Below, piece by piece: positions 9,275 through 48,937 of a DNA stretch of 64,000 nt. The stretch comes from Podarcis gaigeae. Taxonomy: Eukaryota. The notes under the pieces were generated by a model that made no database searches, had not been told where the DNA came from, and was given only the letters and a program-made list of their open reading frames with translations. The stretch lies in NCBI GenBank assembly GCA_964106915.2, contig OZ066921.1; one strand, written 5' to 3'. Position numbers and translations under genes: made by a program. How positions within the stretch are numbered: the first letter of the stretch is position 1; each line of letters starts with the position of its first letter.

Positions 9275-12200
9275 ATGGCGCTGAGGCCACAGGCAGCTCC
9301 CGGCTTAGCCCTGCTGCTCTGGGCCCTGTGCAGGACTGCTGTGCCTGTCACCACGCCTGAGGCTGTGCTAAGGGAGCACCAGGGACATTGCTACCAGCTT
9401 GCCCAGGAAAGATTGGCCTTTGAGGAAGCCCAGGCTGCCTGCGGCCGATGGGGAGGGCACTTGGCACAGGTCCCTTGGGAGGTGACAGGGACGTGGGGAG
9501 CTCTGAGAAGGAGGAGGGGGCAGCTGAGAGGGCCCTCTGGAGGCTGGTGGGTCTCCAAGGGCCCAACCAAGCCTACGGTGGCAGGTAAGTCAGTCCTGTG
9601 GGGGCACCAGAGAGGGCTGGGCAGAGGTGGGAAGTTGTTTCTACTCCAGAGGGTGGAGGGTGCGTCCTGGTTTCTATCACAAAGGCCAGGTCCCTTTACA
9701 CAGCTGACTTGGCTGTGGTTAAAGGCTGGGATTTGGGGAGCCACATTGAGGGGCAGGGTGTGGAGGTGGGGGGCACTGTGCTGCAGAGAGCTGGCTCTTT
9801 TGCTTGTAGTGTAGAATTCTGCTTATTTTCATCTGCTCTGTCAAGGGCATACCACCCCGCTCTGCCTACTGTGGTCAGATCTTACAAGAGGGCAAGGCCC
9901 TCACCTTGCCCTGCCCAGCTTGCCACCATGCCCATGGCAGCCTCTTGTGTCTTTGCCCAGGAGCCCAGCCTCATCTGCATGGGGCTCACCATCAGCCCCC
10001 CACCTGCACCTTCCTCTCCAACCTGGGCTTGCTGCAGGAGGCTACCGGGCCCACGTGCCGCCAGAGGCATCCTTTCATCTGCGAATTTGGTGAGAGGCCA
10101 GCTGGGCTGCCAGGGTGGGATTGTGACACTCCCACTCCACCCCACCCCTGAGGACAGAGATTGCTCCTCCTGACCCAGGAGGGGCTCCCTTTCAGGATGG
10201 TCCTTTTTGCAGGTCCTGTGGAGGGAGGTGAATGCCCAGTCAAAGTGGCCAGGAGTGCCAACAGCTCCAGGCCTTGGCAAAAACAGAAGGCTCAGCTGGT
10301 AGGTGATGGTGGCCGGTTCTCTTCCCTCCAAGTCCAAAGCAAATAGGCTTTCCCTCCTGCTGCCTGAAACCAAACTCCAGCAGATGCACCAAGGCAGAGG
10401 ATGGGGGGGCAATAAAAACAGCCTGTCTGCCACCTCTTAGCCACCCTCCAGACAATTCCTTTGGGCATGATTCCTGGGCAAGCTCCTAACAGGGAACCCT
10501 TTGCCCTGCCCCTTCCAAGAAAGCCTATTGGGTGACATATCCTACCTGGCACAGTGGCACTGCTCTGTCCCACTCTTTTTTCTCTGTCTGCCTCCAGGAT
10601 CTGACCTCCATGGGGCGGAGGCCACAAAGGCTCATGCGGCGGCATCTGGGTGATAAGCAGAAGTACCCAGGTGATGTGGGGATTTATTGATTTCTGAAAT
10701 AATGCATTGAAGAGTAGGTCATCTGCAATTATAAGCAATTGTGAGAGGCTGATCATCTTGGGTCATTCTGCTTATTTTAACAAACCCTTTAAATGCCCTA
10801 AAATAATATTTGTGGGGCTGAAAGGGGTATTTTATCTTATTTCTCATAGAGCATCTTTTCCAAAAGATTGTAGATGTCAGCACAACCAAAAGATATGCTT
10901 TCAATCTGCCTGTACAGAATTACAACTCCAACATTTACCAATGGTATTTGTTTAAGCTGTGCCCAAGGGGCAAGGCACCCGTGATTAACTGTTTTTAACA
11001 AGTTTTATTTCAGATAAACTTTTATTGCCATGTTCTACCTCTTCCATGGAAAGAGCCTGAAGCAATGCTCAGGATGAAAATAAGCAACTGTAATAATGTA
11101 AAAGCGCGAATATAACTAGTAGCCAGTGGTTCCCTTATCATGAGGCTGATCCTTTTGCCGGTCAGGGCAGTGGTTTTCCCCTGAAAGGAAGCAGCTTGTT
11201 GTTGAGACAGGCTCACCGCAAGGAGTTTGTGTTTATGGAGGCCAAAATGCCTGTTTCTCCCTGAGGGGAGAAAAGACTCTTGCTCATACTTCTCCTCTTG
11301 CCTCCAGAGACATCAGCAATCAGGGAGGCCTTGCAGGATGTTGTTCCCAGGACCTGGCAGCAGGTAAAAGAGCCCCACTGGGAGGGAGTATCTGGGGAGG
11401 GGACCCCCTTCAGCCCAGCCCCATTGAGGCCCACAGCAGAGCCACCAACCTTCCTCTGGCTCAAGACAGCCAACCTCTCTTCTGGTGGTTAGCACAGGCC
11501 TTATGTAGGCTGGGGATCCCTTATTCAGTGATCTGCATTTGCCTGCCAGCATTTGAGCCCAAACTCCTGATTCTGCCTGCAGGAGCTGCTCCAGCGACTG
11601 ACACTGCCGGTGAACAATGGTGCCTGGAGTGCCTCTGAGCTGGTATGATTGGGCCCATGGGGAGGGCGGATGCCCCAGAAGGGACTGAGCCCCAACTCCA
11701 AAGGCTATGTAGCTCCCATGGGGAACCTGAAGAAAGAGTCAGGCCAAGTCCTAAGAAGTTCTTTCCTCCAAGAGAGGTGATGGGGAACATCTCATGGAAG
11801 GAGTCGAGGGACCCCCATTAGTGCTGAGGGTCTTGGGCAATGCATGGGCATGGAGGAACATTAACATTACGTATGTGCCTTTGCGTGCCAGGAAGAGGAG
11901 GTGGGGTTTCTTCAGGCTGTCAGTGAGGACCTGCTGAAAAGGAGGCCTCCAGCCTCTCCACACTGGCACATCCTCAACCTCCTGGCAGTCCATGGCACCA
12001 GTCGGCTCCTGCAGGTCATTCTGGGCCCCTGCTCATCCAACGTCAACATCCAGGTGAGGATATGCCACACTCCTGGGTGCCCTGGTGGGGAGGACAGGCC
12101 GGTGCATGGGTCCCTTCATCCCATATTGCCCCATCTTGGATGGAGATTGAGTCCCCAGTAACTGCCCACTTATCCCTCCAGCAGCATGATGCCCTGACTG

Positions 12201-15200
12201 GCACCCTGATGCAGATCCTTCACAAGCTGGAGCAAGCTCTTCAGGAACTGGGGGGCAGCAGTGATGCCATCACCATGGAGACACCTCTCATCAGCATCTA
12301 TACACACAGGTAAGCTACCAAGCTTGCAGCCACTGGGTAACGGGGAAGGTAGGAAGCTTGACTGGTCTGGGAAGGGATGGGAGAAAGATCTTGGCAGGAA
12401 GTGTCCAGGGGAAAAGGCCTTGAGGTAGCCATCTGCCCTTCCCTCATCATGGCAGCTGGCTCACATTTGCCTGGCTGTCCTGCAGATTGGCAACTCTCCT
12501 GAGGCACCCTGATCCCAGGCACCATCTGCTGTGCCCTGGCTCTAACCCTAACTCTCTTTGTCTCCCTGGCTCAGGGTGAACTCTTCCAGGCTGGGCAATA
12601 TGGCGTTCTCCTTCCCTGGCAACCCATGGGCAGCCAGAGTCATTTTGCCAGAGCAGTCTGCGCTGGGCGCCGTCATGCCACAGAATATCCCAGTGGATGT
12701 GCAGGTCAGAGGGAGCAGGAGTGTGTGGCTGGCCCTCTCCTTTGGACTGGGCACAGGGGCCTTCCCTTTCCATGAAACGCAAACTCTCCTCTGCCATCTG
12801 CTGCTACCCCAGGAGGAGAAGGAAGGCAGAGAGCACCCAGGCAACGAGTCACTTGCTGTGCTGTGGAATGCACTGGGGCCCAGCACTCAGAAGTGACTTG
12901 GCTCCTTCAGATCAGCCTGATGACACACCCAGAGGCATCTTCCCTCCCTCCCTCTTCTGGAGCCTCATGCGTCTGGGTTGGACTCCAAACATTTCATGAC
13001 ACCCCCCTTGCCAACACCCCTGCAACCAAGGCCCCCTGACTTGGCCCTACTCAATCTACCTACCCAGTGATTCCAACAGTAAGCAGCCATGTTTCCAAAA
13101 ATGGGGAGCAGAGCGTGAGGGGGGGGGCGCCCAGCCATCCTGCCGAGTGTGGCCATGTGGCCGAGCAGGCATGGCTGGTGGGTCAGGCCCCCTCAGCAGT
13201 GGCGCTGCCCTTTCTTCTTCTCTCCCTCTCTCTTTAGATGGTGAGCTTCCTGGGCAGCCCCTTTCCCCCAAGCTCTGGGGAAGGGGTCACAGGAGCTGTA
13301 GCTGAACTGAACCTCCTTTCTGAGGGCAGCCAGATCAGCGTTAGCAACCTGAGCACCCCTGTCCAGGTATGTCCTGCCTAGAGACTTTGGGCTGAGTGGA
13401 GCCTTCCTCCCTGTAAGGGGGTGGGCTATTGAGCATCTCCAGAGGGCAAGGACAGCCCTCCAGGATCATTTCTCATGGCAGGATCTCATCGTGTGGAGAT
13501 CAGCTGGATCAGCCACCAGGTAGGCCAGCCGCTTAGCCTGGGAGAGCCTACAGTACAGGGTCTGGTCTCTCTGTCATCATCCTTCCCTCTCTCCCGCCGC
13601 AGCTCACCTCCATCAGTGAGGCTGCCTCTGCTCCGGGTGAGAGCCTGAGGCAGCTGTTCATCTCACTGTGGTGGTGCAGTAGCAGCCAGTGACATCCTGC
13701 TCTCTTTTCCCATCCCAGATTTTCCTGCCCCGGGTTGGGCCTACAGCCCCTGCCGAGCCAGCTGCCTTCCTCTCTCCAGGGGAGGCCCTCCTTCTGACTG
13801 CGAACGTGACATGGACAGGGGGATCCCTGATGATCCACGCTCACCTGGACCCTGTGGGGCCTCTGGAGCTCTTCCTGCAGCCAAGCGAGCAACTCCGGGA
13901 GCCCATTGAGCCCAACGTTGGCCTGGGTATAGCACGGGGACAGAAGAGCTGGCTTCTGTTTCCACTTTTGGCCTGGGGAGTGTGAGGACCTCTTCCTAAA
14001 ATGGTTTCCCTTTTGTGTTGCCCCCCCCCCCGCCGCCCCCATCTCCTGCAGATGGCTACACTTGGCTAGTGAAGGAGAAAGTTCTTCATGACCTGAGAGG
14101 AGCCATTCAGTTCCTGGTGGTGCCACTGAACCTCTCTGCCAGCCAGGGTCCTGCCACCTTACATGTCAGCACCTATGGGATCCAGTGCGTCTCCCGGCAC
14201 CTGCCTGATGCCCAGTGGCGAGAGGCAGGCTGCAAGGTGAGTCTTAGCGTTCAAGAAACAAAGGGAATCTGGGTACCTTGCGCCCCCTACTGCCAGAGGC
14301 AGGGAAGAATCAGAATAGCTGCCTCTGGTCCTTAATAACACTTCTATCCCATTTCAAGACCATACTGCCTGCTTCTTTATTTAAAGCATCTGGATCTCTG
14401 TTTTGTGAGAAATATCCAAGGTGATCTGCTGCCCAGAAGCGCCCTTAATCCCACCCTGTTTGCAGGTAGGAGAGAGCAGCAGCCTGGCGGAAGTCCACTG
14501 CCTCTGCACCCACCTCTCCTTCTTTGGCAGCAGCTTCTGGGTGGCGCCAGTCCAGCTGGATGTGGTGCGCACAGCAGAGTACTTTAGCCAGGTGAACAAG
14601 AACCCAGTTCTGGTCGCGGTCCTGGGAGTCGTCTATGCCCTCTACTTGGTGGGGGTGGCCTGGGCCCGCTGGTTGGACACACGCCCCCTGCAACAGGTAA
14701 GTTGCTGGGGGTGAGAGGGCCGGAGGTCAGGGGGGGGGCGGGTCTGGCAGCAAGCAGCACAAACTCACAGGCCCTTGGCAGCTCTTAAGTGGTGATGCTC
14801 TCAGAAGGGCAGGTCATGCAGCAACAGCCACCATTTGGAGGGTGTTATGTACTGAATTGAATAGGATCCAAACTGCAACAGTCTGATTGGTCCTAGAACA
14901 ATAGGATCCAAAAGGCAGCAGTCTGATTGGTCCTAGAACAATGCAGCAATATGATTGGTTGGCAGGAACCACCCAATCATGCTCCAGATAGAAGTGAATC
15001 CACAACCTGATTGGCTTACAGTAGAATTCCAGAATTAGCCAATAACGTGCAGCCCATTGTGTAAATAATGTATATAAAGCAGATACTTTGAGGGGACTTT
15101 CATTCATTCCTCCTCACCACTATGAGCTGAATAAAGAGCATGAAATCACTTTGCGACTCTGAGTATATTTCAGAGACTGAACTCTTGGAGGGTCTCCAGC

Positions 15201-18200
15201 GGCTCTCCCACGCCATGTGGAGAACAAAGGACTCTGGTCTCCTCACCCTCCACCCCTAAAGGGTGTGGCTGGCTAGGGGCGGGGAAGGCTTCTTATTTTC
15301 TACAAATGGTCATGACTGCATTTTGCTCTCTATAAACATACAGCGAGTGAGATGCAGCTAACTCTGTTCCATCTAACGATTCCATGTGGATTTATGGTTT
15401 GCACATCTCTTCGCCAGCAAAAGAGATCCCCTTATTCTGGTCTTCACTGGGGCCAAGTGGGAAGGACAACTGTATGTATGGGGCTTCAGCGCTCTCTGCT
15501 CTCCTGCGCTGCTCCATGGCAGAGCATGACCCTAGAAACGCCACCCCTCACACCCCTCTCCCTCTCCCAGGCAGGGCCAGTCCTCCTGTCCGATGATGAT
15601 CCCTGTGCCCAGTATGGCTACCTTCTCCAGATCTCCCTGCATGGGCAGCAGAAGGCCCCCGGAGGCAGCCCCTGTGTGAGTGGTCTGCCCTGAGTGATGG
15701 AGGGGGTGGGGTGCCTGGTCTTTGCCCCAGAGCTCACCCAGCCCTTTCATCTCCAGCAGGTCTGCATCTGCCTGCAGGGATCGTCTGGTGTCAGCAAGCC
15801 TCGGCGCCTGCCCCTGGATGCCAGCCTCTTCCTCCTACGGGAGCCATACCCACTGGGAGAGCTCCAGAGCGTTTGGTTGTGGCAGGAGCCCCACTCCGCC
15901 CCACAGCTGCCCTGGTCAGTCTGCCCAGAAGTAGGGTGGGCGGGTGACATCCCACTTGGAGACATTGTGCTGGCATGCGGGCACTGTCCACCTCCCATGG
16001 CTTGGCTCTGGGTGCCAGCCAGCCTCTGCTGGACATGCCACAATTCCCCCTCTCTCTGAATGGGGCAGAGGTGGTTATTGTGTCAGGGTGGCCATCCTCA
16101 GGCACCCTGAAGAGGTGGGGCTGGGGGCGGGTCAGCAGCACACCTGGCACCCGTCCAGCAGGGAAGCCTCCTGCCTCTGCCTGACAGGACCTTATTCTAA
16201 GTGGGGCACTAAGAGCACCAGCCTCCTGCCTGGCACTCATTACCCATCCCCTTCCCTCAGGCATATCGCCTACATCACAGTGCGAGACCTACAGCAAAGT
16301 AGGAGGTTCCATTTTTGTTGCCAGCCGTGGCACGTCCCAGCAGCAGGGGCCCCACACAGCACTGCCCAGCATTTCCTAGCAGCTCCACAGCACCAGCCAA
16401 CAGCATTCTGGTAGGCTTACCAAGAGACGGGGGAGTCTGTTTGGGTGTCCTCAGCCCCCACCTGCCCACTGTGCATGAACTTAGCAGGGATCTCCGAACC
16501 GCCTCCTCCCAGCCAGAGCTAGAGACTCCAGCTGTCTTCCTCCTCTGGCTCTCCCATAGCCTGGCCCACCCACCCATCTTCCGCTCTCTCTGCAGGCCCA
16601 TCTTCCGGCAAAGGACCCTGAACGGTCTTCGGGAGGAGCACACAGTGCTGACAGTGCTGCTGACCCGGACAGGCCACGGACGGCCCGTCACGCGGGTCCA
16701 GGGCCTCTCCTGCGGCTTCTGCCTCCTCCTCTGCTCTGCGCTTGTCAGCCTCATGTTCTGGGAGGTGCCCCACGAGTCACCCGAGCTCCTGAGTGTTGGT
16801 AAGGGTTGTGCCACATGGGATATCTCCCAAGGGCCACTGGCATGGAAAAGGGAGCTGTGCAACTCCTCTGCTCCAACTCCTGCCAGTGGAGGAAAGTCCC
16901 TCCTGCGGCTGCCACAACTGGAGGGACAAACACAGTCATACCCTTTGGGCCAGCAGGAGGGAGGTTCATGCATTGTATTAGGACTTCGGAAGAGCCTGGG
17001 TGCAGCTGGATCAGGCCAACTGTGGTGGGATCTAGCCTAGCATCATGCTTCTCACACAATGGCCACCCGATGCCTCCTGGGAAGCCCACAAGCAAGGCTC
17101 CTCTCCTACATTTGATCCCCTACCCCCTGAATCCGGGGGTATCCTGCCTCTGATTGTGCAGGTAGCAGTTGGTGCCTCCTTCCAGCGTCCATGGGGCACA
17201 AAGAGTGGCGACTGGTAGGTCCACTTGTAGGCACTTTCCCCCCCTGTTGATACACAGGCAGCTGCTTCTCCTTCTCCTGGAAGGACATCATGATCAGTGT
17301 GGAGAGTGCCTTGATTACCTTCCCCGTCAACTTGCTCCTTGTATTCATCTTCCGCCACGCTGAACCACGCAAGAGCCATGCAAAGCCTGGCCTGGCAACG
17401 GCTGTGCCAAGTGCCCCTGCCAGCCCAACAACCCTGGACACTGTGCATGAGGTAGGGACAAGAGCTCTCCAGGACCCAGGACATTTTCCCCATTGTGCCT
17501 CCCCTTGGAATAAGGCCACGGCTGAGCTGGCAGTGGAGAAGAACCCCCACCCGATCCCCGAAGCCCCACGTCCCCCAGGATCCTTCTTGCACCAGTGAAC
17601 TTGGTCCCAGGGAGACGTTTTTGCATTTGCAGATACAGCAAGCACTGGCTTGCCAGAGAGTTTTCTCTGTGGCAGTTATGGGATGGCTTTTAATAAGTAG
17701 GAGAGGATATGTTAATGGTAATTTATCCCTCCAGGTGCCCACATTTGTGGGTTGAACATACAAAGAGATCAGCTTATCGCTTCGTTTAAAACACAGGGCT
17801 GAGCAGAGTTCAAAGTCTCATCCTCAGCAGAAAAATAGAAAGCATAGGAAAAGGCTGTGAAGCATTCATTAAATTCAGTCCAGCAACAAAGCAAGCTGGT
17901 TGCCCCTTAACAAAGAACCAGACACAGACTGAGAAGTAAGTTTAAAATATGTTTACTTACTCATAGTCATGCAATTGTTCTCAGCAGCAACAGCAGTAAA
18001 ATAAATGCAGGCAAAATACTTATATTTACAGTATGAACAGCTTGAGGCATGTGGCCAATGCTGAAGCGATGGGATATATGTCTGTTCCATCACTGGCTGA
18101 AGAGAAAAGAGAGAGGGAAGGAACAGGAAATACTTTGATTCTTCATTTCCAAGAGAGGAGGGGAAATGACCTCACACAGAACCATCTCTACCAATTACAT

Positions 18201-20053
18201 TTCTATGATTCGAGTCTCTCTATCAATAATGTGACCCTATGGTCTTAACCCCTTCACATGCTAACTCACAAAAATATGCATTGTTAGATTTGGCTGCAAA
18301 TCTCCCACAGCACTTCTCCCATCTGCTACATCTTCTTGTGCCCAGCTTTGCCCACCTTACCCTCAGCCTGTTGGGTGCATTTGTGCCCCAGTCGCCTGCC
18401 CGTCTACCCGTGCTTGTCTTTCCCTCCCTAGAGCCTGCGTGGGGCAGTGGAGACGCTGAGCAAAGCCAGCAAGCAGAGCCAACAGCTGCTACATCCCGAC
18501 ATGGACCTTGAGGAGCTTCTGCAGTGGCTGGCTCGTTTTATCCACCCTGATCCTGGGGAGGAAGAGGAGGCAGCAGGTGAGAGCCCAGCCATGCCTGCCT
18601 GCCTGCCTTGGGCAGCCCTGCTAGACCCCCAGAGGATGGTGACGGCTGCGGCTTCTGCTTGCAGGGAGGGAGCCCAAGATCTCCAGTGTGGCACCCAGCC
18701 CTGATGCGCTGCACCAGACCTACTGCAACCGCTACCTCCTCCTGAAGCTGCGGCACATCTCCCGTCTCCTGGGGGAGCTGGAACCAGGAGTCCCGACAGC
18801 CAAGCACCCTCCGGCTCTGCAGCAGCGTGTGGAGGAGATGGCCAGACGTCTTGAGCTAGCAAGCCCCATCCGGTCTCGCTCCATGTAGGTAGCTCAGACA
18901 GGCTCTGTGAGCAGGCAGGGAAGCCTACCTTGCAGAGCCTCTTCCTCATGCCTTCCTCTTGTTCCTCCACAGCCGAAGGTGGCACTTGCCCTGGTGGGGC
19001 GCCTGGGTGGGGTGGGCCCTGCTGGTCTCCCTCAGCGCAGTGGCTACCTTCTTCTCCTTGCTCTATGGCTTCCACTATGGCAAGGAGAGCACCGAACGCT
19101 GGCTCATCTCCACTGCCATCTCCATGGGCCAGGCCCTCTTCGTCCTGCAGCCCCTCAAGGTACTTCCCAGCCAGGCTGAGCAAACCCAGCATTCCAGGGG
19201 GGCCTTCTCACGGGAGGTCGGGTTGCCAGACCTCTAAGTCTGATCTAAAGTCTTCAGGTTTGCCTAGTACCCTCCAGGTGGCAGGTGAAGGGCTGAATCG
19301 CTAGATGGGTGAGAGTTCCAGTGGTGTGTGTGTGTGTACACAGAAGACCGTGTATAGAGGGTGCACACTTTGGACCAGCAGGAGCTGGATGCAAATTATA
19401 GCATAGACACGCTGGAGGACTACCTCCACTCTTCTCCTAATTAACCTCTGTCTCTAGGACCCTTGTGACTATACCAGGGTCTGTGCCCCTGACACCACCA
19501 GGGGCAGCCCCTAGGTCTCAGGTTTGGGCCCTGAAATCTCAGGGTCTGTGATACTCCTCATCTGGCAACCCGTAGGGGAAGGGACATCTCAGCAGCAGCA
19601 GAAATCATGGTGCACATACTTCTTCCTCATCTCATGTATGTGTCTGCCACCTGCCTGGCTGGGACAGGTGTCTGGCATTGGAGCACTGCAAACACCCACT
19701 GCATCTCCTCTCTTCCTCCCATGAATTTCAAGGGGGTGGGGGAGAATTTAACCAAAGCACCCTCACACATACACCAGTTTGTTGTGGTGTTTTGGCACAA
19801 AGTGAGGGGCTTGGCTCATCTGGAGAAAGGGAAGCCTAAAGATGCTCCCTCTGTTTTATGGATGGGGGGAGATGCTCCCTCTGTTTTATGGATGGGGGGA
19901 GATGCTCCCTCTGTTTTATGGATGCGGATCCTGCCCATCCTTCTTCTTCCATGAAACCCAATGCAGGTGATAAGCTTTGCCATTTTCTGTGCCCTGATAC
20001 TGAAGAAAGCAGAGGATGAAGATGAGGCAGCCCTGGACCTGGAAGAGCGGTAA
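9275..20053 (+). CDS. Truncated polycystin-1-like protein (PKD1L2/PKD1L3-family paralog): SP, C-type lectin, GAIN/GPS, TM1, degenerate PLAT, TM2-5; no channel domain; ~1102 aa
   Basis: 22 GT-AG exons forming one 3309-nt ORF: 9275-9584, 9961-10089, 10213-10298, 10598-10670, 11308-11363, 11583-11642, 11916-12053, 12182-12309, 12575-12704, 13238-13366, 13719-13926, 14052-14236, 14466-14696, 15571-15675, 15760-15914, 16261-16410, 16596-16798, 17258-17451, 18432-18576, 18665-18884, 18973-19159, 19967-20053. Motifs: MALRPQAAPGLALLLWALC signal peptide; CYQL..AFEEAQAAC..WGGHLA and C..HPFICEF lectin; WREAGCKV..HCLCTHLSFF GPS; TRVQGLSC; LPWW..LYG..QPLKV; ends LILKKAEDEDEAALDLEER*. The small exons 3-6 are the least certain. 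Confidence 0.85.
14843..15172 (+). mobile_element. Solo LTR in an intron of the truncated PKD1-like gene
   Basis: TG...CA ends (TGTTAT...ATTTCA), repeated CTGATTGG (CCAAT) boxes, TATATAAA at ~15071, AATAAA at ~15130; TSD not clean. Confidence 0.6.
19841..19924. repeat. 30-bp tandem repeat, ~2.8 copies
   Basis: GATGCTCCCTCTGTTTTATGGATGGGGGGA repeated just upstream of the last exon of the truncated gene. Confidence 0.9.
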
Positions 20054-22351: not shown

Positions 22352-22372
22352 GGGGCGGTTTAGACTATTAAA
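22352..22372 (+). promoter_or_regulatory. Candidate PKD1L3 core promoter (GC box plus TATA-like element)
   Basis: GGGGCGG at 22352-22358 and TATTAAA at 22366-22372, ~40 nt upstream of ATG 22412. Confidence 0.4.
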
Positions 22373-22411
22373 GCGTGGCCCCGGGCCAGCTTGCTCCAAA
22401 GAGGGAGCGGC

Positions 22412-25400
22412 ATGGGTCTCCCTATAGGGATGTGGCTCTGGCTCTGGGCCGCACAGGTCTCTTCGGAGGAATCGGAGCCCGCCTGCCTGCCCGTGGCAGG
22501 AGAGGACTGCTATCGGCTGCTCCGGTGGCCACAAGCCGCCTTGGGTGCAGTGATTTGGTGCGGACGATCCCACGGCCGGCTCCTCCACACGTGGAACCAG
22601 CAGATCCAGGACGCCCTGCGCGACCGCCTGGACGACAGGAGCAAAACCTGGATCGGGGCTGCAGCAAAGGCGCTCCCAGAAGTGAGCCACCCTGGCAAAG
22701 GTGAGAGCGGGGCGGGGGCGCAGAGGCCCAACAGCAGCACCGCAGAAGAGGGGCAGCAGCAGCCAATTCCAGTATACTCTCCCAGGATGTGTGTTATTCC
22801 CCACTCAGCATCTCTGACTCGCCCAGACGCCAAACCCCTCAGGGCAAGACCGCCACCCTCCCTACACAAGGTGGGACCACCGTCTCCTCGTGGGGATCGA
22901 GGCGGGGCAGCCAAGCTTCTCGCTTCAAGGGCCCAGCCAGGCCCTGCAGACCCTTCCCTCCGTCGAGGGACCCCGCCCACCAGCGTTTCAAGGACACCCA
23001 GGGTGGCAGCCATCCTCCCATGCCAAGCCCTGCTGCTGATGGCTCAGCTCTGCAGTCTGTGACAGGCAGTCAAGGAGTGGGGAGGGTTAAAAATAATAAT
23101 AATAATGCAAGGCTACCAGGCACTCACCCTATGTAAAGGCTCCCCTTAAACCACTTGCCACCACTGGGAGGCTCTAGTCTGGAGAGGGAGCGGAGCCCTA
23201 CAGGGGGCGCTCAGGGCAGCCTCAGCCGGAAAGCCTTATCCTAAGAAAATCCCCCAAAGGCAAACAACTGGCGGGCTGGTGCTGAGTGTGGGGTGGCGGG
23301 GAAGAGGAGTAACCGTGCCTGACGGCGGCGCCTACTCTCCGCAGACCACTGCAAAGTCCTCGTCCGGAATGGGGACCAATTCTATACCAGGAGGGAGGAG
23401 TGTGACCAGAAGCACTTTTTCATCTGCCAGTCTGGTGCGTGAGTCTGCCCGCCCACCGGGGTGGGAGTTCGTGCCCTCATTCCGCACCCACAGGGGCTTG
23501 GGCAGGGGCCTCCAGCTTCAAAGAGCGAGAAGGACCTCGTGGCTGAGCTGAGGATGAGACTCTCTGGACGGCCCCCCACGAAGCACGCCCTTTCGAGGTG
23601 GCTGCAACCCCGGAGGCAGGGCCAGGGCCAGGCTCTCCCCAGGCGGCTGGGCTGGGCCGTCGCAGGTCCTAGAACCGGCTCCTGCCGCCCAGGAAGCGCC
23701 CCTTCCATGAATTCTCCCGAGCTCAACCCCTTCTGCTCTCTGTCTGCTACAGGCCCCCCAAGGACGCCCCGAGAGACTTCCACGCCCTGGGTGGTAAGTT
23801 CCCGCCAAAGCAAGTGCCTGCGCAGCCGTCGAACAGGAACCGGCGAAGGCTCTCTAGGCCGTCGCCGCTGCGCAGCGCCCCCTGGACTGACTGCGGCGCA
23901 CCGCCGAGCAGCTGGCCCTGGTGACTTTCTCTCCCTGTCTCCCAGAGAACGACCTGCCAGCATTTGAGGTGCGGCCCGACGGAGGCGACGCCCATCCTCA
24001 CCGAAGAGCCGACAGCGACTGCTCCTCTGAGCGCCCAGGCCTCCGCCGCGACTCCTCCGCCGCCCAGTGCTCCTCCAGGAAGCAGCACAGTTCGCCAGCC
24101 GACCACCGCTGACATCCAGTCATTCCTTGGGACCAGGCCAGAACTCAGCACTCCCCGCCATTCGCCGAGCACCCCCAAGTGGGCATCCAGCACGTGGCCC
24201 ACCAGCAACAGCAACCAGACCCGCCCCAACTCTCAGACCTCAGCCCCAGAGCCCAGCACTCAGCCGCTGCCCACCAGCAAAACCACCTCGGGGGGTACCA
24301 AAAGCCACGAGTCCAACACCAGCCCAGACGCCTTCACCTTCAACCCTAGAGACTTCTCCCCTGAGGACCAGGGGAAGGTAGGGAGACATCTGGACTGGCA
24401 CCTGCCCCTACCCTGGTGGCACCTTGTCCAGACAGGCTCTTCTCTCTCTCCGTCCCATACCCCACACCCTGCTCCAGAGATATCAGGAGGCATGGGGGGG
24501 GGGGCGTTGCGGCGTTGCAGGATTCTTCCTTTGCACCTGGAAAAACCAACGCTGAAGTGCAGATCAAAGATGCGTGTGACTTGTATATGATTTCCCAGGG
24601 ATCCAAAGTCACTTAGTGAGGGATTTCCAGACTGGTTTTGCCCACTGCAGAAAGGGGGGCAAGTGGCTATGGGGAAGCGTGGGGGGGATGTGTGGCTCCC
24701 TCCAGCCTAGCTGCCTTCTCAGGTCTTCCCCCTATAGGGTAGAGGAGCCTTCCCAGAGTTAGAGATTTAGCGACAAGCTCCACTTGCAGACTCACTGACA
24801 GCGTAATAGGGCAACCAGGCCCCCTTCTCCCCCAGCCCCTCTCACTCAGGGTCTGTCCCACAGGCCCTAGAGAAGGTGCTGCACCAGTTCAGCCAGGCTG
24901 TGCAGACCCCAGACCACCCTATGGCACTGGAGCAGGCAGCCCGGATGCTGGAGAATTTGACAAATTTCCATGCTCTGCTCTCAGATGATGCCCAGGTACT
25001 GGCATGTGGCAGGGAGGGAGGGAGGGTGGGTGGCTGGCACCCCTGATCTAAGGGTCTGTCCCCTGCGGCCTATTCTCCCAGTCCTTGGTTGAACCAGGCT
25101 CTACCCAGGCTATGTACAGAGGCAAGCCTGCTGCTTGGCACAGCCAGCCTCGCCCTTGCACCCCCAAATCAGCCCCGCCAGATGATCAGCCCTGCCTTGT
25201 TCCTACAGGCCTCTGCCAGCCAGGCACTCCTCTCCCTGAGCTCTCAGCTACTGAGGGACCACCCTGCCAGCAATGCCTCCTGCCTAGACCTCGCATCACA
25301 GGCTCTTTTCCAGGCCCTCAGCAACCTCCTCCAAGCCTCAGGCAGCCAGACACCCAGCTTCGGCCCGCAACAGGTGGGGAAGAAAGAGGACCTGCAGGGG

Positions 25401-28400
25401 TCGGGTGGAGAAGGCTATTCAGAAGGATGGGGTTGCCAGCTCAGGCCTGCTGCATGGCTGGGTCTCATTCTGAAGGCACCCCCTTTTGTCCAGGCCTTCC
25501 CATTGCTCTGAGCCCATGGGAAGGGAGCTGAGCTTCCCAGCTCCCCACCCTGGCTCTGCCCAGCTCCTGACCACATCTGGCCTTTCTGCAGCAGGAACCA
25601 AAGGTCCTGGAAACAGCACTGAAAGCCCTTCCTCTGATCCAGACGGGGCTCCTGTTGGGAAGCTCCACCATGGAGGAATCCACAGTAACTGTGGTGTCTC
25701 CTGTGCTCAGCACCACCCTCAGCAGGTACCAGTCTCCTCTCTCCTAGGCACTGAAGAAGTGGGGGGGAGCTTGCTCAGGGCAACTGAATGAATTGTTTGG
25801 TTGCCAATTACCTATTATAATCCTTTTGGTACGCAGAGTAAGACATTGTTCAGATAATGCATCTTGGTTAGGGAACAGACTTTTATGAGTTACAATCTCA
25901 CACACAGGGATGTTTGTAGTTAAGATAAATGATAAAGGAGTCTATTACATGATTTTTAAAATTATTACTACATTTATAACCCACTTTTTCTCCAAAAAGC
26001 TCAGGATGGCTCACAGTTGTCTCCTTTTCTCCATTTTATTCTCATAACAACAACCCTGAGAGGTGGGTTGGGGCTGAGAGATAGTGACTGGCCCAAAGTC
26101 ACCCATTGGGTTTCATGGCTGAGAGGGGATTTGAACCCTGGTCTCCCACGTCCATGTCTTGCACTCTAACCACATAATTGGATAGAAAAGTTCCAAGTTC
26201 CAGCCTAACAAGTCTGTACTAGAGCATGGTAGCCATTCTGGCTCCTATTTTATCTCAGAGGATAATTCTTCTTGGAGAGAGAAATGTGAGAGGAGCAGGA
26301 AGTTGTGAAACAGACTGCAGCCTGAGAATATCAAAAGAGATAGAGAGGTGAGCTGAAGAAGTTAATGACACAAAGGTAGTCTGGGAGTCTGGAGGTCTCG
26401 AACTCTGTTCTATCTGTCCTAACCTACGCAAGACCCCTCTTCTGAAAATGGAGTTGCACTCAAACTTTCAACAGTAACCCCTCTCCCCACTCCCTACCAG
26501 GTGTGACAAAGCCTCCCTGTCCCATGCCTCCTTCCACCTGCTTCAGCCAAGGGGCCTGAACGTAACCTTCCCATCCAGCTCTGCTCTGGAGCCAGTTCTG
26601 AGCCAGCACCCTCAACTACAAGTCCAGGTAAGGTGGTAGTGGCTTGCTGCCCACTGGGTCCTAGGGAGACATAGTGCAGGGCTGGCAGGGCGTGGAGGTG
26701 GGGCAGAGGGCACCCCCACAGCTCGCTCTTGCTCTCATCTTCACTCTAGGTGGCCTCCTTTGCATTCAACCCTTTCCAGCACCTGGATGGGAAGCCGATC
26801 AAAAGGATGGCAAGTATCGCTCTCATGGCCAGCGAGGAGTCCATCGGTGTCCACAATCTTGCAGAGGAAATAGAGGTGAGAATGGATACTGTACTGGAAA
26901 GTTCTCTCATCAGGGGGACTCTTCTCTCTGCACCCAAGTGGCACGGAGAAGCAGCGCTGTCCAAGGTCCAGCGCTGGATCAGAGGTAAGCACTTTGTGCT
27001 GTATGGCCTGATGGGAGACAGTATGTGCTCAAGGGCCAGTGGGGGGCACTTCAGGGCTGACCATGGACATGCTGTCTGCTTCCAGATTGGGCTCAGTGCT
27101 GAGGCTAGTGCTGAGGCCCCTCACACTCACTTGACTGGCAACGTCAGGAACTTTGACATTGTGGTAAACATCACGTCAGTAGAGGATGCCCTGCTAGTAT
27201 TGGTGGAATCCAGCACAGTGGTCCAGATCACCTTGCACCTGGGCCTCCAACCTGAGCCCAACAAGAACAGCAGCCTCCTCAACACCACCCTGCCCAGCAG
27301 CGGATGGCAAGAGGGTGAGGACTTGTTAGAAGGAAGCTAGAGGGCAGGTGCTGCTTTGGGACTTCCTATTGGAGCATCTGATTGTCATCTAGGAGAATAG
27401 TGCTGGACCAGAATGGTCATTGGCCTGATGTAGCAGGTTCTTCTTATGCTCATACATACAACACACTGCTGCATGTATCCCCTTAAAAGTGAGTCTCATT
27501 GGAGTTCAGTGAAGTAACTCTCGGGTAAGTGGGCATAGCTTTGAGGTGTTAACTTCACCAACTGTTCTGGGTTTCAGCCATAAGACATGACCTATATGGC
27601 AGGCTTCCTCAAACTCGGCCCTCCAAATGTTTTGAGACTACAATTCCCATCGTCTCTGACCACTGGTCCTGCTAGCTAGGGATCATGGGAGTTGTAGGCC
27701 AAAAACATCTGGAGGGCCAAGTTTGAGGAAGCCTGCTATATGGGAACAATTTACCTCTATAAATAAAAAGGGAAAGTTGCAAAAGTATACAGATTGAATC
27801 AGCTGTGTTTCAATTATTTAATTTCCCATTAAATTCATTTAATTGCAAATTAACATGGTGTAGTGGTCAGATTTGCACTGTAGGAAACATCAATGGGAAA
27901 TTTGTTTTAAATCGCTTAGTTAAATCAGCCCGTTTCTTCATTTACATAATTGACCAAACCACTTTGATTTAAATCTGTGCACCTGGAAGTAAGCACAGAG
28001 GGAGGGGCTTGAGGAGCTGGGGCCAGGCAGGACTGTGTCCCCAGTGGGGGAATGTGTGGGTGAGGTCAGTGGGTGTGGTCCCTCTCTGCTCTCTTTGACT
28101 CACTGCTCTTGCTTCAGAGGGTACCTACACATGGGTGATTCCTCCAGAGGAGCTGCAGCATCATGGCCTGGGCACCTACTACATCTCTGCAGAGGTGGCT
28201 CCCCTCTCTCAGGGCCCCTGGAACCTCTCCATTCACACCATCATCTCCGGATGCTACTACTGGTCCAGCCAGCATCAGGCCTGGAGAACTGATGGATGTC
28301 GGGTATGCAGTAGGGTCAACCAGGCCAGAGGGCTGTTGGGCAGGCAAGCAAGCCTTTGCTTCCATGCTGGGAGGAAAAAAAAGTAGGGCAGAATGTCATG

Positions 28401-31400
28401 GGGAACCAAATGGAGCAGAACTTTGGGGACCTCATCCTCCTGTGTTGGTTTCTAATGCATCAGTGCCTCCCTCCCAGGTGGGCTCCCAAAGCACCCTCCA
28501 TAGCACCCAGTGCTTGTGCAACCACCTCACCTTCTTTGGGTGCATCGCCTTGGTCCTGCCACACCTGATTGACCTTCACAACACTGCAAAGCTCCTGAGC
28601 ACTGTGGGCCAGAACCCTTCCGGGCTGGCCTTGCTAAGCAGCTTGTTGCTGGGCTATGGAGTTGCCCTTGTTTGGGCTCGATGGAGACAGAGAACGGATG
28701 TTAAGAAGGTGAGGGGAAAGGGCAAGCAAAAGATTTATGATGGTTGTTTGGGGTTATTAGCATTTGCAGGCCAGAGACACTCCCCCCATCTGCCCTCATT
28801 CAGGCCATTCTTGTCTGATGTGCTGAAATGAGGAACAATGAGATATTTATCCAGCAAACAGCTGAGAGCCAGACACCCTGGAAAAGCCGACTTGCTGAAG
28901 TGGGGCTTGGCCATTTCTAGGGCCACCCACCCCATGTGTGTCTCTCCCCCTTCCAGGTGAAGGTCACAATCCTAGCAGATAATGAGGCCACCGCCTGCTT
29001 CCCTTACCTGATCCAAGTCTTCACAGGCTACCGCCGAGGGGCTGGGACCTCTGCTAAGGTAGGGGAGGGTCTCACTTTCCTGCAGGCCCACTTTGTACTG
29101 TTGATGCTACAAGTGCTGCCCATCAAGTTCCGTGACCTCAGGCTCCTGCCCACAGAATCTGGGCCGAGTCTGGCAGATCTCTCCCTATCGGGGAGTGGGT
29201 GTGTGGGGTGCAGGCTTCTGTGTGACTGGCTGCATGGAAAAGCCTGTCTTTGATGACATCCTTCATGTGCTCCCTGCTTGGGCAAGGAACTGAGGAAAGG
29301 AAGCAATCAATGAACCCCACCCAGCACCCACCCTCTTTTCCCTTTCCTTGATTAACCCCTTCTCCCTCCTTGGCTTGAGGTTATCCTGACCCTCTATGGG
29401 GCAGAGGGCCGGAGTGAGCCACACCTGCTACAACACCCCCAGGGGCCCTCCTTTGAGCGAGGTGGGCGGGATGCCTTCCTCCTTGCCACTCAGAAGTCCC
29501 TGGGCAACCTCCACGCCATCCGCCTCTGGCACGACAACACTGGGCCCAACCCCAGCTGGTAAGTCCATGGCCCAGCAAGGGCTGAGGGTGGGGGCCGAGA
29601 GGGTGGGGTTAGAGTGAACCAGACTGCAACCGGATGCCAGGCAAGGAGGAGGTTGGAAGCACACGACTGGCGTGGGAGAGTCCGTTGGCAGCACCAGACC
29701 TTATCAGATGCTAGTAGGCAAAGGGACACTGCAGCTGGCATACCTAGTCCTCCCATGCCATGGGGTTGTGCTGCCAGGACCTGGATACATGCAGAATTCC
29801 CAGGTCCTCAAAGATACCTCCTTTCAAGCCTATGCTGAAGAAATTCACAACATCCCTGTCCAACTGTAGCAAAACTAGCTGCAGGTCAGTTGGACATTTC
29901 AGGGGGACGATGGAACTGTGGCATGTCTTGTCCCACCCAAGGCTTATGCTCACCATATTAAAGGCCAGCTTTGGCTCCAGAGGCCACATTGTCATGTAAA
30001 ATAATGCATTATGACCCACCTTTGGTCTGAACCCCCAAACATAAAGGATACATCAGGGAGGGAATACCTTTCCATCTCCAGTCTTTTCCCAAAGCTTCTG
30101 GGCAAACGACGCTTTATGTATAGGTTAACTTGGAGCAAAGCTTCCCTTGTGCTTGAAGGAAGCCACATGCAGCTCTCTGCTTTGGCAAGGTGATGAGGGC
30201 AGAAGGAAAAGATCCCCACTGCTTCCCTTTAACCTGCAGCTCTTGAGTGATGGGGGGCAGATCCCTTGGCTGCAGCTAATGGGCACCACATGACTACTTG
30301 GCAGTGCCACCCATGTGTGGGCAAATGACTGAAAGGCCTGAGCCTCCTGCAGGTTTGTGAGGCGGCTGGTTGTCTGTGATCTGCCTGCCAAGAAGAAGTG
30401 GCATTTCCTGTGTGACTCTTGGCTGGCAGCTGACCTGGATGACGGCCATGTGGATAAAGTCTTTGCTGCTGCCTCCGAGAGGGATCTCCTGTCCTTCAGG
30501 TAAATATGAGCCCCACCCACCCACCACCTGCCAGTTTGTGGCATCTCTGGAATGTGTTTCTGCCCCTGATTTACCCAACAGGTACCTTGCCTTTGACTGA
30601 ATTATGCTAAGAACACCTGTGTGAAAAAGCAATAATCAGACATCAAAAAATAAAAGTCAGGGAACGGCAGGCTCTGACCCAGAATCTGCTTGGAATGACG
30701 AATCTCAGACCCAGTGCAGAAAGTTCCTTTGACTATACACAGAGAGGGCCTTTCTCTCCCACCCATCTGGGAGTTGGGTCTTCCTTCCAGGTCAGAGAGT
30801 GTGATGCAGCTTCCAGCTCCTCTCCATTCAGAAATTAGGTGCAGCAGGAAAGGTCCCACCCTGCTCCTGGCCCTTGACCCTCTCTGGCTCAGCCCCTACC
30901 AAATACATCTCTTACCCCACTTCACCAGGTACCAGTTCTGGTCAGGGCTGGTGGACAAATTGACGCAGGAGCACCTGTGGCTGTCGGTGGTGACCTGCTC
31001 GCCCTGGAGCCCCTTCACCCGTGTGCAGAGGCTCTCCTGCTGCCTGGCCCTCCTCTGCTGCACCTTCCTCATCAACATCATGTTCTGGAGAAAAGAGGCA
31101 GCGTCCAGAAGCCCCGAGGCTGGTGAGTCAGCTGCCAGCTGGAGACTAGCATAGCCAGTGCCTTTCCTTGTCCCCCACCCCAACATGATGCAGGTGGGTG
31201 CTAGGCTGGGGGCAGGTGAGTGGGTGGGGTAGGGAAGAGGCTGGTTTCCCACCACTTGCCATGGCTCACAGCCCCCAAGGCAGAGCCCTAAAGAGTCCTG
31301 TATTTTTGCTCCTGTCCCCATGCTCCACCTTCCATGCATAGGGCTTGTATGTCTTTAAGTAGCGCTGAGGATTCTAAGCTTCACAGTGGAGCTGGGAGTC

Positions 31401-34400
31401 CCCCTTTGGACGCCGCCCAGCATATTGGGCATCGAAACTGCCTCAGCCACAGCAGTGATCCTTCTGGCCACCCCCTCCTCCTGACTGAAGGTCTCTGTCT
31501 GCCCCTCCTCTCCCCCCCCCTGCTCCCGAGACAGGGCCTTTTATGGTGACTTGGCACGAGCTGCTGGTGAGTGTGGAAACAGCCATCTTCCTAATGCCAG
31601 TGAGCCTACTGATCAGCCACATCTTCCAGCTGGTCCAGCCTCCAGCCCCAAAGCCTCCGGCTGCCAGCTCCGAACTCCTGCAGACTGTGATGCCCCCCAA
31701 GCAGGTGATGCCCATCACACGAGTCAAGCAGGTGAGACCCCCTCCTCACAAGTCCCTCCAGTCAGCAAGAGGTTCTGAGCAGTCAGCCTCCGCCGTGATG
31801 GGTGCTTGGCACTCTTGCCCTGCTCTCTCCATTGCAGGAGCTGGAGGAGACCCTGGGCTTCCTCTACAAGAACATCCTCTGCCAGTGCAGAGCCATGGAC
31901 AAGTTCCCTGGGACTTGTGAGCAAGTACCGGAGCTTGTGGCTGCTCTGTGTGACCTCATTGAGTCCCACCTCCAGCACCAGAAGGACCTGGAAGGTCCCC
32001 CTCAGGGTAAGAGTAGCTTGCCTTGGCAACGGATGCAAATACCACTCCCTTCCTCTTAGACAGGGAGTGTGCCACCCTTCCTCATGCTCTGTGCACCAGC
32101 TTGCACCTTTGGGGAGCTGAGCAAAGGAGGGGGAATTAAGGCTCTGGAGGGTGAGAGTGATTCCTCTTTGTACTTGTTTCCAGAGAGGCGCTTCAACCTC
32201 CACAGCTACCTGAGCCATGTGCTGAATGACTTGGGGACTCAGCTCTGCAGCCTGGATTTGTGCAGCTTCCCTAACCCCTATGACCATCTGCATGCAGTGG
32301 ACCAACTACGAAGAGTCCAGCAGCACCTGGAGCAGCAGCAGGTCCAGCCCTGGCCCAGCCCTGAGGGGCCTGGCAGGTAGCCCCCACCCAGAAGCTCCGC
32401 TCATCTATCTCTTCCCCACTCTCCTGGCCCCATTTCCTGGTAAAATTTGGCAGAGATTGCTCCAAACCCAAAATAATACTTGGGGAACAAGATCCCACTG
32501 TGAAACTCTGCGGCATCTACTGTACACACCCTACGTATGTATACAAAGAAACACACCTAGCTAAGGTCAAAGTTCCTTCCATGAAATAGCTTGCAGGAAG
32601 AAACTAACCAGATGTCTTCACACTCCAGGGAATGCCTTCAGGGGCTGGGCGAGGAGGCAGGTCACTGTTACAGGAGATAGAAGTTGCTCCCCCCCCAGGA
32701 CTCACCAGTGAGGATGGGGGTCGCATATGCAGCAGAGCGTTCAAATGTGACCCAGAAACAGAGAGAGGCAACAGTACAAGGTCTCCACTGCAGTCGAGTT
32801 CAGGCAAGGTACAATGCAGCAAGGCAGGGCGATGAGAATCAGGAAATAAGGCATCAGAGACCTGTATTATTTCCTGCAACTAGAAGGCTCACTAGGGAGG
32901 CTTTATATACTCTTGTCTCCTAAACTACACTCAACCACAGCCACTGACTGCTTCCTCACAAGCAGACTGCTGCCTCCGATTCCTGAGACTGGCAGGGGTA
33001 GCTGTTCCACCTCCTGTTCTGACAGTTCCAGGGGTTTTCATCAGGTACTAACCTGGAGGGCCCCTGGATCTATAGGGTATCTGGTTCATCTTCAGAGGAC
33101 TCCGCGTCTGGTCCCGTGTCACACGCAGACCCAAAGCCAGCCAGTTTTCCCAGCCCACCCAATAATGGTCTTTTTCTTAACTGCCTATTGCTTTTTCTGC
33201 TTGGTCTGTGGGACATTTGCCCTCCCTCCCTCCACTGGTGCTCCCAAAGGCTGAGGTGCCATTTATTCTCCTGTCTCTGTGTCTCAGGCCCACCGGGCCC
33301 AGGAGCGAGCTCAGCAGTTTCCCACTTGAAGACCCTGACAAGGAGAGGCCGCCGTTCTCCCACTGTCTCCCTGGGAGATTCAGCTTCGCTTGCTGGCTCA
33401 CAGTGGGGAGCATCAGCCTGGTTTCGGCCTTCTTCACAGTGCTCTACAGCCTAGAAATGAGCAGGGACGAGGCTGGGCACTGGGCCATCAACATCCTGCT
33501 CTCAGTGCTACAGAACATCTTTGTAATGCAGCCCCTGAAGGTAACTTGGTCCTATCTGGGGTGCAGCTAACCTCTCCCCACACCCTTGCCAGAGCCAGCA
33601 TCTCCCCTCTTCTCCCTGCCTCTACAAATATCTTTGGTGTTCTGTGATTCTGCAGCAACACAGTCCAGACTCTAGGTTTAATGCTTGTCCATCTCTCCCC
33701 CAATCTGCACTGGTAATGTGTGTAATGTTACTAACCATTTGTGGTGGGGCACCTCCTACATATTCTGCTAAGAGGGGCCCCAGACACCTGCCCTGTGGGC
33801 CCCCCCCAATGGTAACCCTGTTCTCCCTCCTCCCCAGGTGTTGGCTTTGACCTTCCTCTTCTCACTGCTGCACAAGAGGGAGTTGTGGAAGGACAAGGGG
33901 CAGGAGCAGCAGCTCTGGTGGGCCCTGGGCCTCGTCACAGGTAATTCAAGCTCTCCAACCCCACCCCACCCCACCCCGCGCCTCCATCTGCAATGCTCGA
34001 TAGGGCATCTGCCTGAGCAGCATCTGACCAAAGGGGCCTTTTTCCTCTTGCTTGGGACTAACTCCAGCTTTCCTCTCCCTCTAGCAAGGGGCCTACAATT
34101 GGAAGCTTATGGGCGGAGAGACTGGGCAGACCCAGCTTACAGACCCCCTGCCCTCCAGCCCATGGTGCGGCCAAAGGAACGAGCCTTGAAAGACAAGAAG
34201 TTGTACTCCTTGATCAGAGAGATTGCAGGTGAGACCAGGCGCGAAGGCCAGTAAGGGCGTGGATGGGTTGTGCAACACTTCCTGCTTCCTCCCCGCACCA
34301 AGCATGCTCAGCATTCACACTCCTAAGCATCAGTGGTTAAGGAAGCAAGCAAGACAGAGAATGATACCAAGGCCTAGGTCAGAATGGTGGGAGCGGCAGT

Positions 34401-46044: not shown

Positions 46045-46373
46045 GGTGTAGAATTCCTGCCAAGAACACAAAAGAGAAAAAGCCTACTGTCATGTGTGTT
46101 AAAGGCAGACAGCTAACAGTTTCCTGTGTAGATATATTCTACTTGTAATATTTATATATTGCTTTGCACATTCAGAGCCATTCCAGAGTTATTTAGAATA
46201 AAATACAAAATACATTTAAAATTCAAAAAAGTGATACAAATATAAAACACCAAAAGTGCTCAAAAATTAATCTAAACACAATATTCCCTGCTCTACACAA
46301 GCAGGACACCAGTATTCTCAAAAATCTCAATCATCAGCGCTGTCCAAATGCTGAGAATAACTTTTTTGCATGG

Positions 46374-46540
46374 TTCTAGATTCAGGTAGGCAGCTGTGTT
46401 GGTCTGACGCAGTCGAAATAAAATAAAAAAATTGTCCAGGAGCACCTTAGAGACCAGCTAAGTTTGTTCTGGGTATAAGGTTTCGTAGGTATCTGAAGAA
46501 GTGTGCATGTGCACGAAAGCTTATACCCAGAACAAACTTA
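46374..46540. mobile_element. Penelope-like element fragment with inverted terminal duplication
   Basis: ~46459-46486 and 46513-46540 are inverted repeats; the fragment contains a hammerhead core. Confidence 0.7.
46488..46527 (+). ncRNA. Minimal type I hammerhead ribozyme motif (Penelope-type)
   Basis: GGUAU-CUGAAGA-A-GUGUGCAUGUGCAC-GAAA-GC-UU-AUACC: 5-bp stem I (GGUAU/AUACC), CUGANGA and GAAA cores, stem II, palindromic AGCU stem III. Confidence 0.7.
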
Positions 46541-48930: not shown

Positions 48931-48937
48931 GGGAACC

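Follow-up and report, generated by a model that had tools for sequence, protein, structure and literature searches.

An intact channel-less gene beside PKD1L3 in the lizard Podarcis gaigeae, very probably an ancient PKD1L3 paralog

Gene organization of the locus

The 64,000-nucleotide (nt) stretch of Podarcis gaigeae DNA analyzed here (assembly GCA_964106915.2, contig OZ066921.1; referred to as the window) carries two polycystin-1 family genes in tandem on its plus strand, PKD1L3 at 22412..39003 and, ahead of it at 9275..20961, a gene which we call X. Gene X consists of 23 coding exons, modelled from AG/GT boundaries, orthologs and contig joints, and encodes a channel-less polycystin-1-like paralog of 1116 amino acids (aa) whose frame is free of internal stops over its whole length. 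The encoded order is signal peptide, C-type lectin, GAIN/GPS, transmembrane helix 1 (TM1), PLAT and TM2-5, followed by a stop about 30 residues past the TM5 motif; the TM6-11 channel domain with TOP and pore is not encoded. The closest named proteins are those of Podarcis, with 95-97% identity.

Exons 1-2 (9275-9584 and 9961-10089) encode the predicted signal peptide and the C-type lectin domain, assigned with a hidden Markov model (HMM) of our own and by identity to Zootoca, and exons 3-5 (10213..11363) encode a linker that has a basic stretch around residue 182. The GAIN domain, GPS motif, stalk and TM1 lie in exons 6-13 (11583..14696), where the GPS reads His568-Leu569 / Ser570 (codon at 14517). 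The PLAT domain, shortened in squamates, occupies exons 14-16 (15571..16410), exon 15 measuring 158 nt against 179 nt in PKD1L2 and PKD1L3. Hydropathy and the structural model placed TM2, TM3 and a cytoplasmic helical loop in exons 17-20 (16596..18884), and the match to the polycystin-1 structure placed TM4, TM5 and an acidic tail in exons 21-22 (18973..20049). The terminal exon (20943..21512) holds six codons, the stop TGA (20959-20961) and the 3' untranslated region with AATAAA at 21490; an equivalent short terminal peptide is present in the Zootoca, Lacerta and Sceloporus models. A sequence-only reading of this stretch, made before the present analysis, had found the extra gene but began it seven exons too late; the gene begins at 9275.

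The adjacent PKD1L3 gene (31 exons, 1771 aa) is intact, carries a channel domain (Pfam PKD_channel) and falls in a clade with goat and wombat PKD1L3. Its intron 25 (36789-36962) has a GC-AG boundary, and two PKD1L2 introns in our model likewise have GC donors. When the channel half of PKD1L3 was compared with the window, neither the interval from X to PKD1L3 nor the sequence upstream held a channel remnant (best stray tblastn E 0.14), and a channel exon compared with the genome gave just two matches, PKD1L3 and PKD1L2 (3 candidates scored).

A candidate alternative upstream exon of X (8250..8341, plus strand, start approximate) is weakly indicated by the loose end of one contig (run X1), which was placed in the window by eye. 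It is joined near 10544-10555 and skips exons 1-3, and a search for an in-frame signal peptide in it found none. Tandem splice acceptors 3 bases apart were noted at 12182/12185 (exon 8) and at 15757/15760, and intron 13 contains a high-copy repeat at ~14840-15200 (contig depth hundreds to thousands).

Transcript support and selection on the reading frame

Transcript data consisted of contigs from seven runs of related organisms which were guessed to be RNA; no run recorded as RNA holds the stretch. Contig joints cover introns 4-22 of X, or 19 of its 22 introns. Both exon 8 acceptors are used, in different runs, giving forms of 128 and 125 nt where the sequence-only reading had the longer one, and exon 15, previously put at 155 nt, has its 158 nt in the contigs. 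The joint 20049-20943 was seen in runs X4 and X7, with shifted forms in X1 and X6. The last exon earlier matched to PKD1L3 measures 83 nt (19967-20049, phase 2) rather than 87 nt and is spliced to 20943, so that its end phase is unlike that of PKD1L3. The terminal exon is carried by four runs from four studies, in contigs which end at 21427-21512, near the AATAAA.

Exon differences of X listed in two tables comprised 13 silent and 7 replacement changes, an excess of silent changes with p 1.6e-4 at an expected share of 0.25 and p 0.003 at 0.33. Ten of these 20 differences come from a table of which 40 of 325 rows were listed, and the fully listed table by itself gave 6/10 silent (p 0.02-0.07). 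Taken with the open frame, the silent excess supports, at the level of sequence, the selection on X that had been argued earlier from its intact frame.

Domain content and predicted folds

With an HMM trained on lectins from outside the lizards, the X lectin scored 54 bits, the best shuffle reaching 7.7 (161 of 200 shuffles scored). Its lectin/start region has 137 of 146 residues in common with Zootoca, and the Pogona and Phrynocephalus models share the start. Pfam searches with single exons 1, 2 and 13 of X gave no match; Pfam PLAT was found in Sceloporus, fish and amphibian orthologs and not in lacertids.

Structural comparisons were made with an AlphaFold model of the Lacerta ortholog (predicted local distance difference test score 75, predicted template modelling score 0.49). 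This model matched the GAIN of ADGRB2, an adhesion G-protein-coupled receptor (GPCR; Z 18.9, root mean square deviation (rmsd) 3.2, 250 aligned), polycystin-1 residues 3065-3624 (Z 17.1, rmsd 3.7, 211 aligned) and a lipoxygenase PLAT (Z 14.0, rmsd 2.1, 108 aligned). Foldseek by itself gave GAIN and PLAT without polycystin-1, the polycystin-1 match coming from a second structural comparison; a profile match of X to 6A70 had E 1.3e-59. Five hydrophobic segments were seen by hydropathy, corresponding to the TM1-5 bundle. Adhesion GPCRs share with X the GAIN fold and the HL/S-T motif, but X has five polycystin-type helices with an internal PLAT and no seven-helix receptor bundle. It shows the polycystin-1 family arrangement of a GAIN with GPS before TM1, a PLAT after TM1, and TM1-5.

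Conservation is highest in TM2-5 (0.77-0.81 versus 0.35-0.47 for GAIN). The GPS reads HL[ST] in 90 of 108 X orthologs and H-x-[ST] in 106 of 108. After the lectin, an RX[KR]R motif occurs in 58 of the 75 orthologs in which the lectin end was located (116 examined), against 0/75 in the following 70 residues and 0/7 in non-X proteins. The basic stretch of the X linker sits where fish and amphibian orthologs have this furin-type motif, lacertids having the minimal RXXR only.

Distribution of orthologs and a shared stop

Short X orthologs occur in the lizards Podarcis, Lacerta, Zootoca, Sceloporus, Anolis, Pogona and Phrynocephalus and, beyond lizards, in newts, caecilians, frogs, bichirs, sturgeons, gar and many teleosts; the database name of nearly all of them is PKD1L2. 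The homolog search gave 166 matches among 1293 candidates of 385-1227 aa, 120 of which were listed and, with plaice added, 121 homologs were examined. The TM5 motif was found in 113 of the 121 (8 are without it), and the protein ends within 70 residues of the motif in 108 of these 113, with exactly 42 residues in 76. Two others end at 71 and 84, and three continue (two PKD1L2 pieces and bowfin). A short protein common to frogs, newts and bony fishes is likely to be a very old receptor and not a decaying leftover. A cluster atlas look-up returned only Chordata-level clusters with PLAT and GPS.

No X from turtles, crocodilians, birds, snakes, mammals, coelacanth or lungfish was among the labelled matches listed, and since fast-evolving lizard X is also missing from the listing of the size-limited homolog search, which gave 120 of its 166 matches, absence in those groups is not established. 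Fused models of 2400-2765 aa put X directly before PKD1L3 in Phrynocephalus (agamid), Pelobates (frog) and Acipenser (sturgeon); these are likely annotation joins, and they imply an X-then-PKD1L3 tandem in sturgeon, frog and agamid. The X and PKD1L3 pieces of sturgeon lie on one 1.22-Mb contig. The TM1-5 half of an Amia calva (bowfin) model groups with gar X and its channel half with sturgeon PKD1L3 (100/100); this model represents either a genuine fusion of X with PKD1L3, which would bring the helices back to 11, or two genes joined in annotation.

Relationship to PKD1L3 and PKD1L2

The colinearity with PKD1L3 described by the sequence-only reading was reproduced. All 30 exon lengths that it gave fit AG/GT-bounded open-frame exons, bar the corrections given above for exons 8, 15 and 22, and exons 8-22 of X agree in intron phase with exons 7-21 of PKD1L3 at 14/14 internal introns (chance ~7e-7, using typical phase frequencies). 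The two GPS exons are identical in length (185 and 231 nt), the proteins are strongly diverged (26% identity over 902 aa), and there is no intron similarity, the two DNA matches at E<0.01 both lying within coding exons. Searched against the genome, exon 13 of X matched at three places: X itself, PKD1L3 and a locus 6.3 Mb away. This last locus is a separate full-length PKD1L2 (G000:C17:49.87-49.92 Mb), complete with a lectin, the long front part and channel exons. Its 15 matching exons carry phases identical to those of X and PKD1L3, and mean exon-length differences are similar (X-PKD1L3 13.7, X-PKD1L2 15.5 and PKD1L3-PKD1L2 11.0 nt); the colinearity is therefore family-wide and does not show which gene was copied.

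For phylogenetic analysis 46 rows, sampled across the groups, were taken from ~290 proteins, most teleosts, isoforms, fragments and invertebrate rows being left out, and were aligned from GAIN to TM5 (695 of 1219 columns) and analyzed under LG+C20+F+G4 with five unnamed proteins as outgroup; 6 of the 17 PKD1L2 and PKD1L3 rows are unnamed and were assigned by tree position alone. X forms one clade (100/100), in species order and including the short fish and amphibian proteins, and lies outside both the PKD1L2 clade (100/98) and the PKD1L3 clade, which includes sturgeon (96/97). X, PKD1L3 and shark genes group together (100/99), and the lamprey gene branches outside all jawed-vertebrate genes.

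Approximately unbiased (AU) and Shimodaira-Hasegawa (SH) tests were run under LG+F+G4 with fast constrained searches. A recent PKD1L3 copy, with squamate X joined to squamate PKD1L3, was rejected (AU p 5e-36), as was fish X as a truncated PKD1L3 (AU p 0.0013). X with PKD1L2 was rejected weakly to moderately (AU p 0.031), and squamate X with PKD1L2 at AU p 1e-44. Both shark lineages were rejected as sister of X (AU p 0.004 and 0.010). X with PKD1L3 to the exclusion of sharks was not rejected (p 0.31), and the duplication may therefore be of gnathostome or osteichthyan age. Sawfish groups with basking shark and not with skate, giving two cartilaginous-fish paralogs, perhaps pkd1L4.1 and pkd1L4.2 of PMC11979771.

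An old duplication, preferred earlier over a recent copy of PKD1L3, thus withstood these tests, X being neither nested within squamate PKD1L3 nor the sole PKD1L2-type locus of the genome. The further suggestion of a PKD1L2-like relic from a PKD1L2/PKD1L3 array was not supported, as X joins PKD1L3 and the shark genes. The TM4-5 motifs quoted for that suggestion exist in X, but they occur also in lamprey, sharks and sturgeon PKD1L3; being common to lamprey, sturgeon PKD1L3 and the shark genes, they are therefore ancestral. Identities in this genome are 32.9% for X and PKD1L2, 26.8% for X and PKD1L3 and 35.3% for PKD1L3 and PKD1L2, and because PKD1L3 itself is that close to PKD1L2, the likeness of X to PKD1L2 reflects slow PKD1L2 evolution.

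In sum, PKD1L3 is the nearest named relative of X in the tree and the adjacent gene, and has the same lectin-stalk-GAIN-TM1-PLAT-TM2-5 plan and intron phases. X differs from it in having no TM6-11, TOP, pore or C-tail, in its low identity, and in the post-lectin basic motif that most X orthologs carry. With PKD1L2 it shares the phases, a higher raw identity and the database name, whereas PKD1L2 has its own clade and the true gene sits at a separate locus with a long front part and channel exons.

Neighbouring genes

IST1 (minus strand, Pfam Ist1) lies 3' of PKD1L3 within 41200-58438 of the window, and an ATXN1L-type frame of 686 aa with Pfam AXH is found beyond PKD1L3 on the minus strand at 56381-58438. 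DHODH is 0.85 Mb upstream of X (G000:C17:42.68 Mb) and not adjacent, and a reverse-strand gene start ~40 kb upstream of X resembles that of NFAT5; the arrangement suggests that the DHODH/NFAT5-like block upstream of X is inverted. Because PKD1L3 itself sits there, the IST1-PKD1L3-DHODH neighbourhood is not diagnostic for X.

Discussion

We are highly confident that X is an intact and ancient channel-less paralog of PKD1L3. A fuller reading, to which we give a probability of about 60%, is that X is a channel-less PKD1L3 paralog of lizards, amphibians and ray-finned fishes whose product is a predicted self-cleaving, pore-less subunit acting through a partner channel. It would have arisen on the lineage of PKD1L3, as a tandem copy that broke off in the intron following the TM5 exon, before ray-finned and lobe-finned fishes separated some 430 million years ago. 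In teleosts and gar X would have been retained and the channel half of PKD1L3 lost, while mammals appear to keep only PKD1L3.

Several observations weigh against this reading. Exons 1-3 of X have no contig cover in the seven runs, which is not evidence of silence, and one contig bypasses them, reaching exon 4 from the upstream exon; because of this missing cover the signal-peptide isoform rests on conservation. Several lacertid RefSeq models of X start differently, and the Sceloporus model is without lectin. Splicing of X into PKD1L3 was absent in the 15 listed joints of 32, but with the first exons of PKD1L3 almost uncovered there is room for X-PKD1L3 read-through. The size filter of 385-1227 aa enriches short forms by design, although it does not so favour a shared stop position, and in the 1158-aa bowfin model the TM1-5 of X continue into a channel half of PKD1L3. 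Only their absence among the labelled matches points to a loss of X from mammals, birds, turtles and crocodilians. The topology tests were run under LG+F+G4 with fast searches, the SH test among them rejects neither X with PKD1L2 (p 0.30) nor fish X with PKD1L3, and squamate X has a long stem (0.91), a biased composition and a shortened PLAT. Finally, the link to zebrafish made below is drawn from the domain coordinates of a cyprinid ortholog.

England et al. (2017; PMC5318412) described a zebrafish 'pkd1l3' of 1083 aa beside dhodh, with lectin at 55-155, GPS at 493-531 and PLAT at 604-713, and reported that the channel domain is absent from the 'pkd1l3' of zebrafish, other teleosts and gar, which was suggested to be in the course of being lost. 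Length, domain order, coordinates and channel absence match those of a cyprinid X ortholog (1078 aa; lectin 53-157, GPS 490-528, PLAT 601-711). Judged by these domain coordinates, the fish 'partial pkd1l3' is very likely X, read there as a PKD1L3 being lost and taken no further, and here as a separate conserved paralog. Mayeur et al. (2024; PMC11979771) placed the chondrichthyan duplicates pkd1L4.1 and pkd1L4.2 outside the PKD1L2 and PKD1L3 clades. Our shark and ray rows likewise form two lineages near X and PKD1L3, which we infer to be pkd1L4, but the sawfish and skate proteins retain the channel domain and neither lineage was accepted as sister of X. Searches of a mostly open-access literature found no description of a conserved channel-less clade, although the PKD1L2/PKD1L3 tree in figure 33 of the PMC11979771 supplement may show it; PMC6140781, considered as such a description, was a false match. 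Our verdict is that X is a real, intact and ancient gene of the polycystin-1 family, one already observed in fishes but taken there for a remnant, and misnamed in databases.

The TM1-5 of polycystin-1 packs in cis on its channel part, and the 11-helix, channel-forming members of the family are characterized by a 1:3 complex with a PKD2-type subunit. X has no TOP, pore or C-tail and therefore cannot be a pore subunit, and by analogy we tentatively propose a twice-cut module whose TM1-5 bundle would dock on a partner polycystin channel. The X protein would enter the secretory path, where a furin-type protease would free the lectin (the motif is present in most fish and amphibian orthologs and degraded in lacertids) and the GAIN would self-cut at HL/S. 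The remaining stalk-TM1-PLAT-TM2-5 piece would then dock in trans on S1-S4 of a PKD2-type channel or a P100-like half and would tune the delivery or gating of that partner. The TM1-5 half of polycystin-1, the complement of P100, is the corresponding known part, its residues 3065-3624 being those that match the X model; in polycystin-1 the halves are split by proteolysis in the TM5-TM6 loop, whereas in X the split is fixed in the gene. TM6-11 of polycystin-1 are reported to be sufficient for channel function with PKD2 and to arise naturally as P100 (PMC6832002). With its shorter PLAT and weaker basic site, X may have changed its role in lizards. More speculative again is that X has been, for more than 400 million years, an unrecognised stand-alone TM1-5 module with a furin-shed lectin and a self-cut GAIN, plugging in trans onto PKD2-type or P100-like channels.

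Among the alternatives, the one that survives best, though we think it unlikely, is that X works alone as an adhesion-type sensor or scaffold, in which stalk, TM1-5, PLAT and loop would signal, or traffic lipids and arrestin, channel-free. X is retained in teleosts and gar, where the locus is without a channel domain (PMC5318412), so that PKD1L3 is not needed by X; its GPS and post-lectin basic motifs are conserved, and the PLAT of polycystin-1 binds phosphatidylserine, phosphatidylinositol 4-phosphate and beta-arrestin (PMC9672506). The polycystin-1 stalk, however, is proposed in the same source to act via TOP, and X has neither a TOP domain nor a C-tail with a G-protein site; teleosts, moreover, retain pkd2 and pkd2l1, so that partners exist.

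It is improbable that X is a truncated PKD1L2 descendant from an old PKD1L2/PKD1L3 tandem array. The higher identity to PKD1L2, the common TM4-5 motifs, the database names and the SH result all lean that way, but X groups with PKD1L3 and the shark genes while lamprey stays outside, the AU test disfavours X with PKD1L2, the motifs are ancestral, and X has the short lectin-stalk-GAIN plan of PKD1L3 without the long PKD1L2 front part. Still less probable is that the short genes arose by separate truncations or are relics in decay, the fish genes being PKD1L3 in the course of loss and the lizard gene a separate remnant. The position beside dhodh in fishes (PMC5318412), the fast squamate branch, the shortened PLAT and the weakened basic site would fit such relics, but fish X with PKD1L3 is rejected by the AU test, sturgeon carries X and a channel-bearing PKD1L3 in tandem, fishes and amphibians stop at the same position, and silent changes are in excess. 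Least probable of all is that X amounts to the 5' portion of a single long gene running on through PKD1L3, or results from faulty annotation. Fused models of 2269-2765 aa and the chimeric bowfin model speak for it, but X has a stop, a terminal exon and a polyA signal to itself, with contigs ending there in four runs from four studies, PKD1L3 has its own start and lectin, and in close relatives the annotation shows separate short genes.

Because TM6-11 by themselves support channel function (PMC6832002), the role of the TM1-5/PLAT/GAIN half of polycystin-1 apart from its channel half is a question in polycystic kidney disease. X is a naturally occurring gene for just that outer half, is subject to selection, and could be knocked out in Xenopus and medaka, which have orthologs, and in zebrafish, which very likely has one. 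The history of the family is also corrected: the fish gene is very likely not a dying pkd1l3, and teleosts appear to be without a true PKD1L3. About a hundred entries that databases list as PKD1L2 belong to another gene, with consequences for comparative and expression work. If it proves true, trans-docking of X would show the sensing and channel halves of polycystin-1 to be separable working units.

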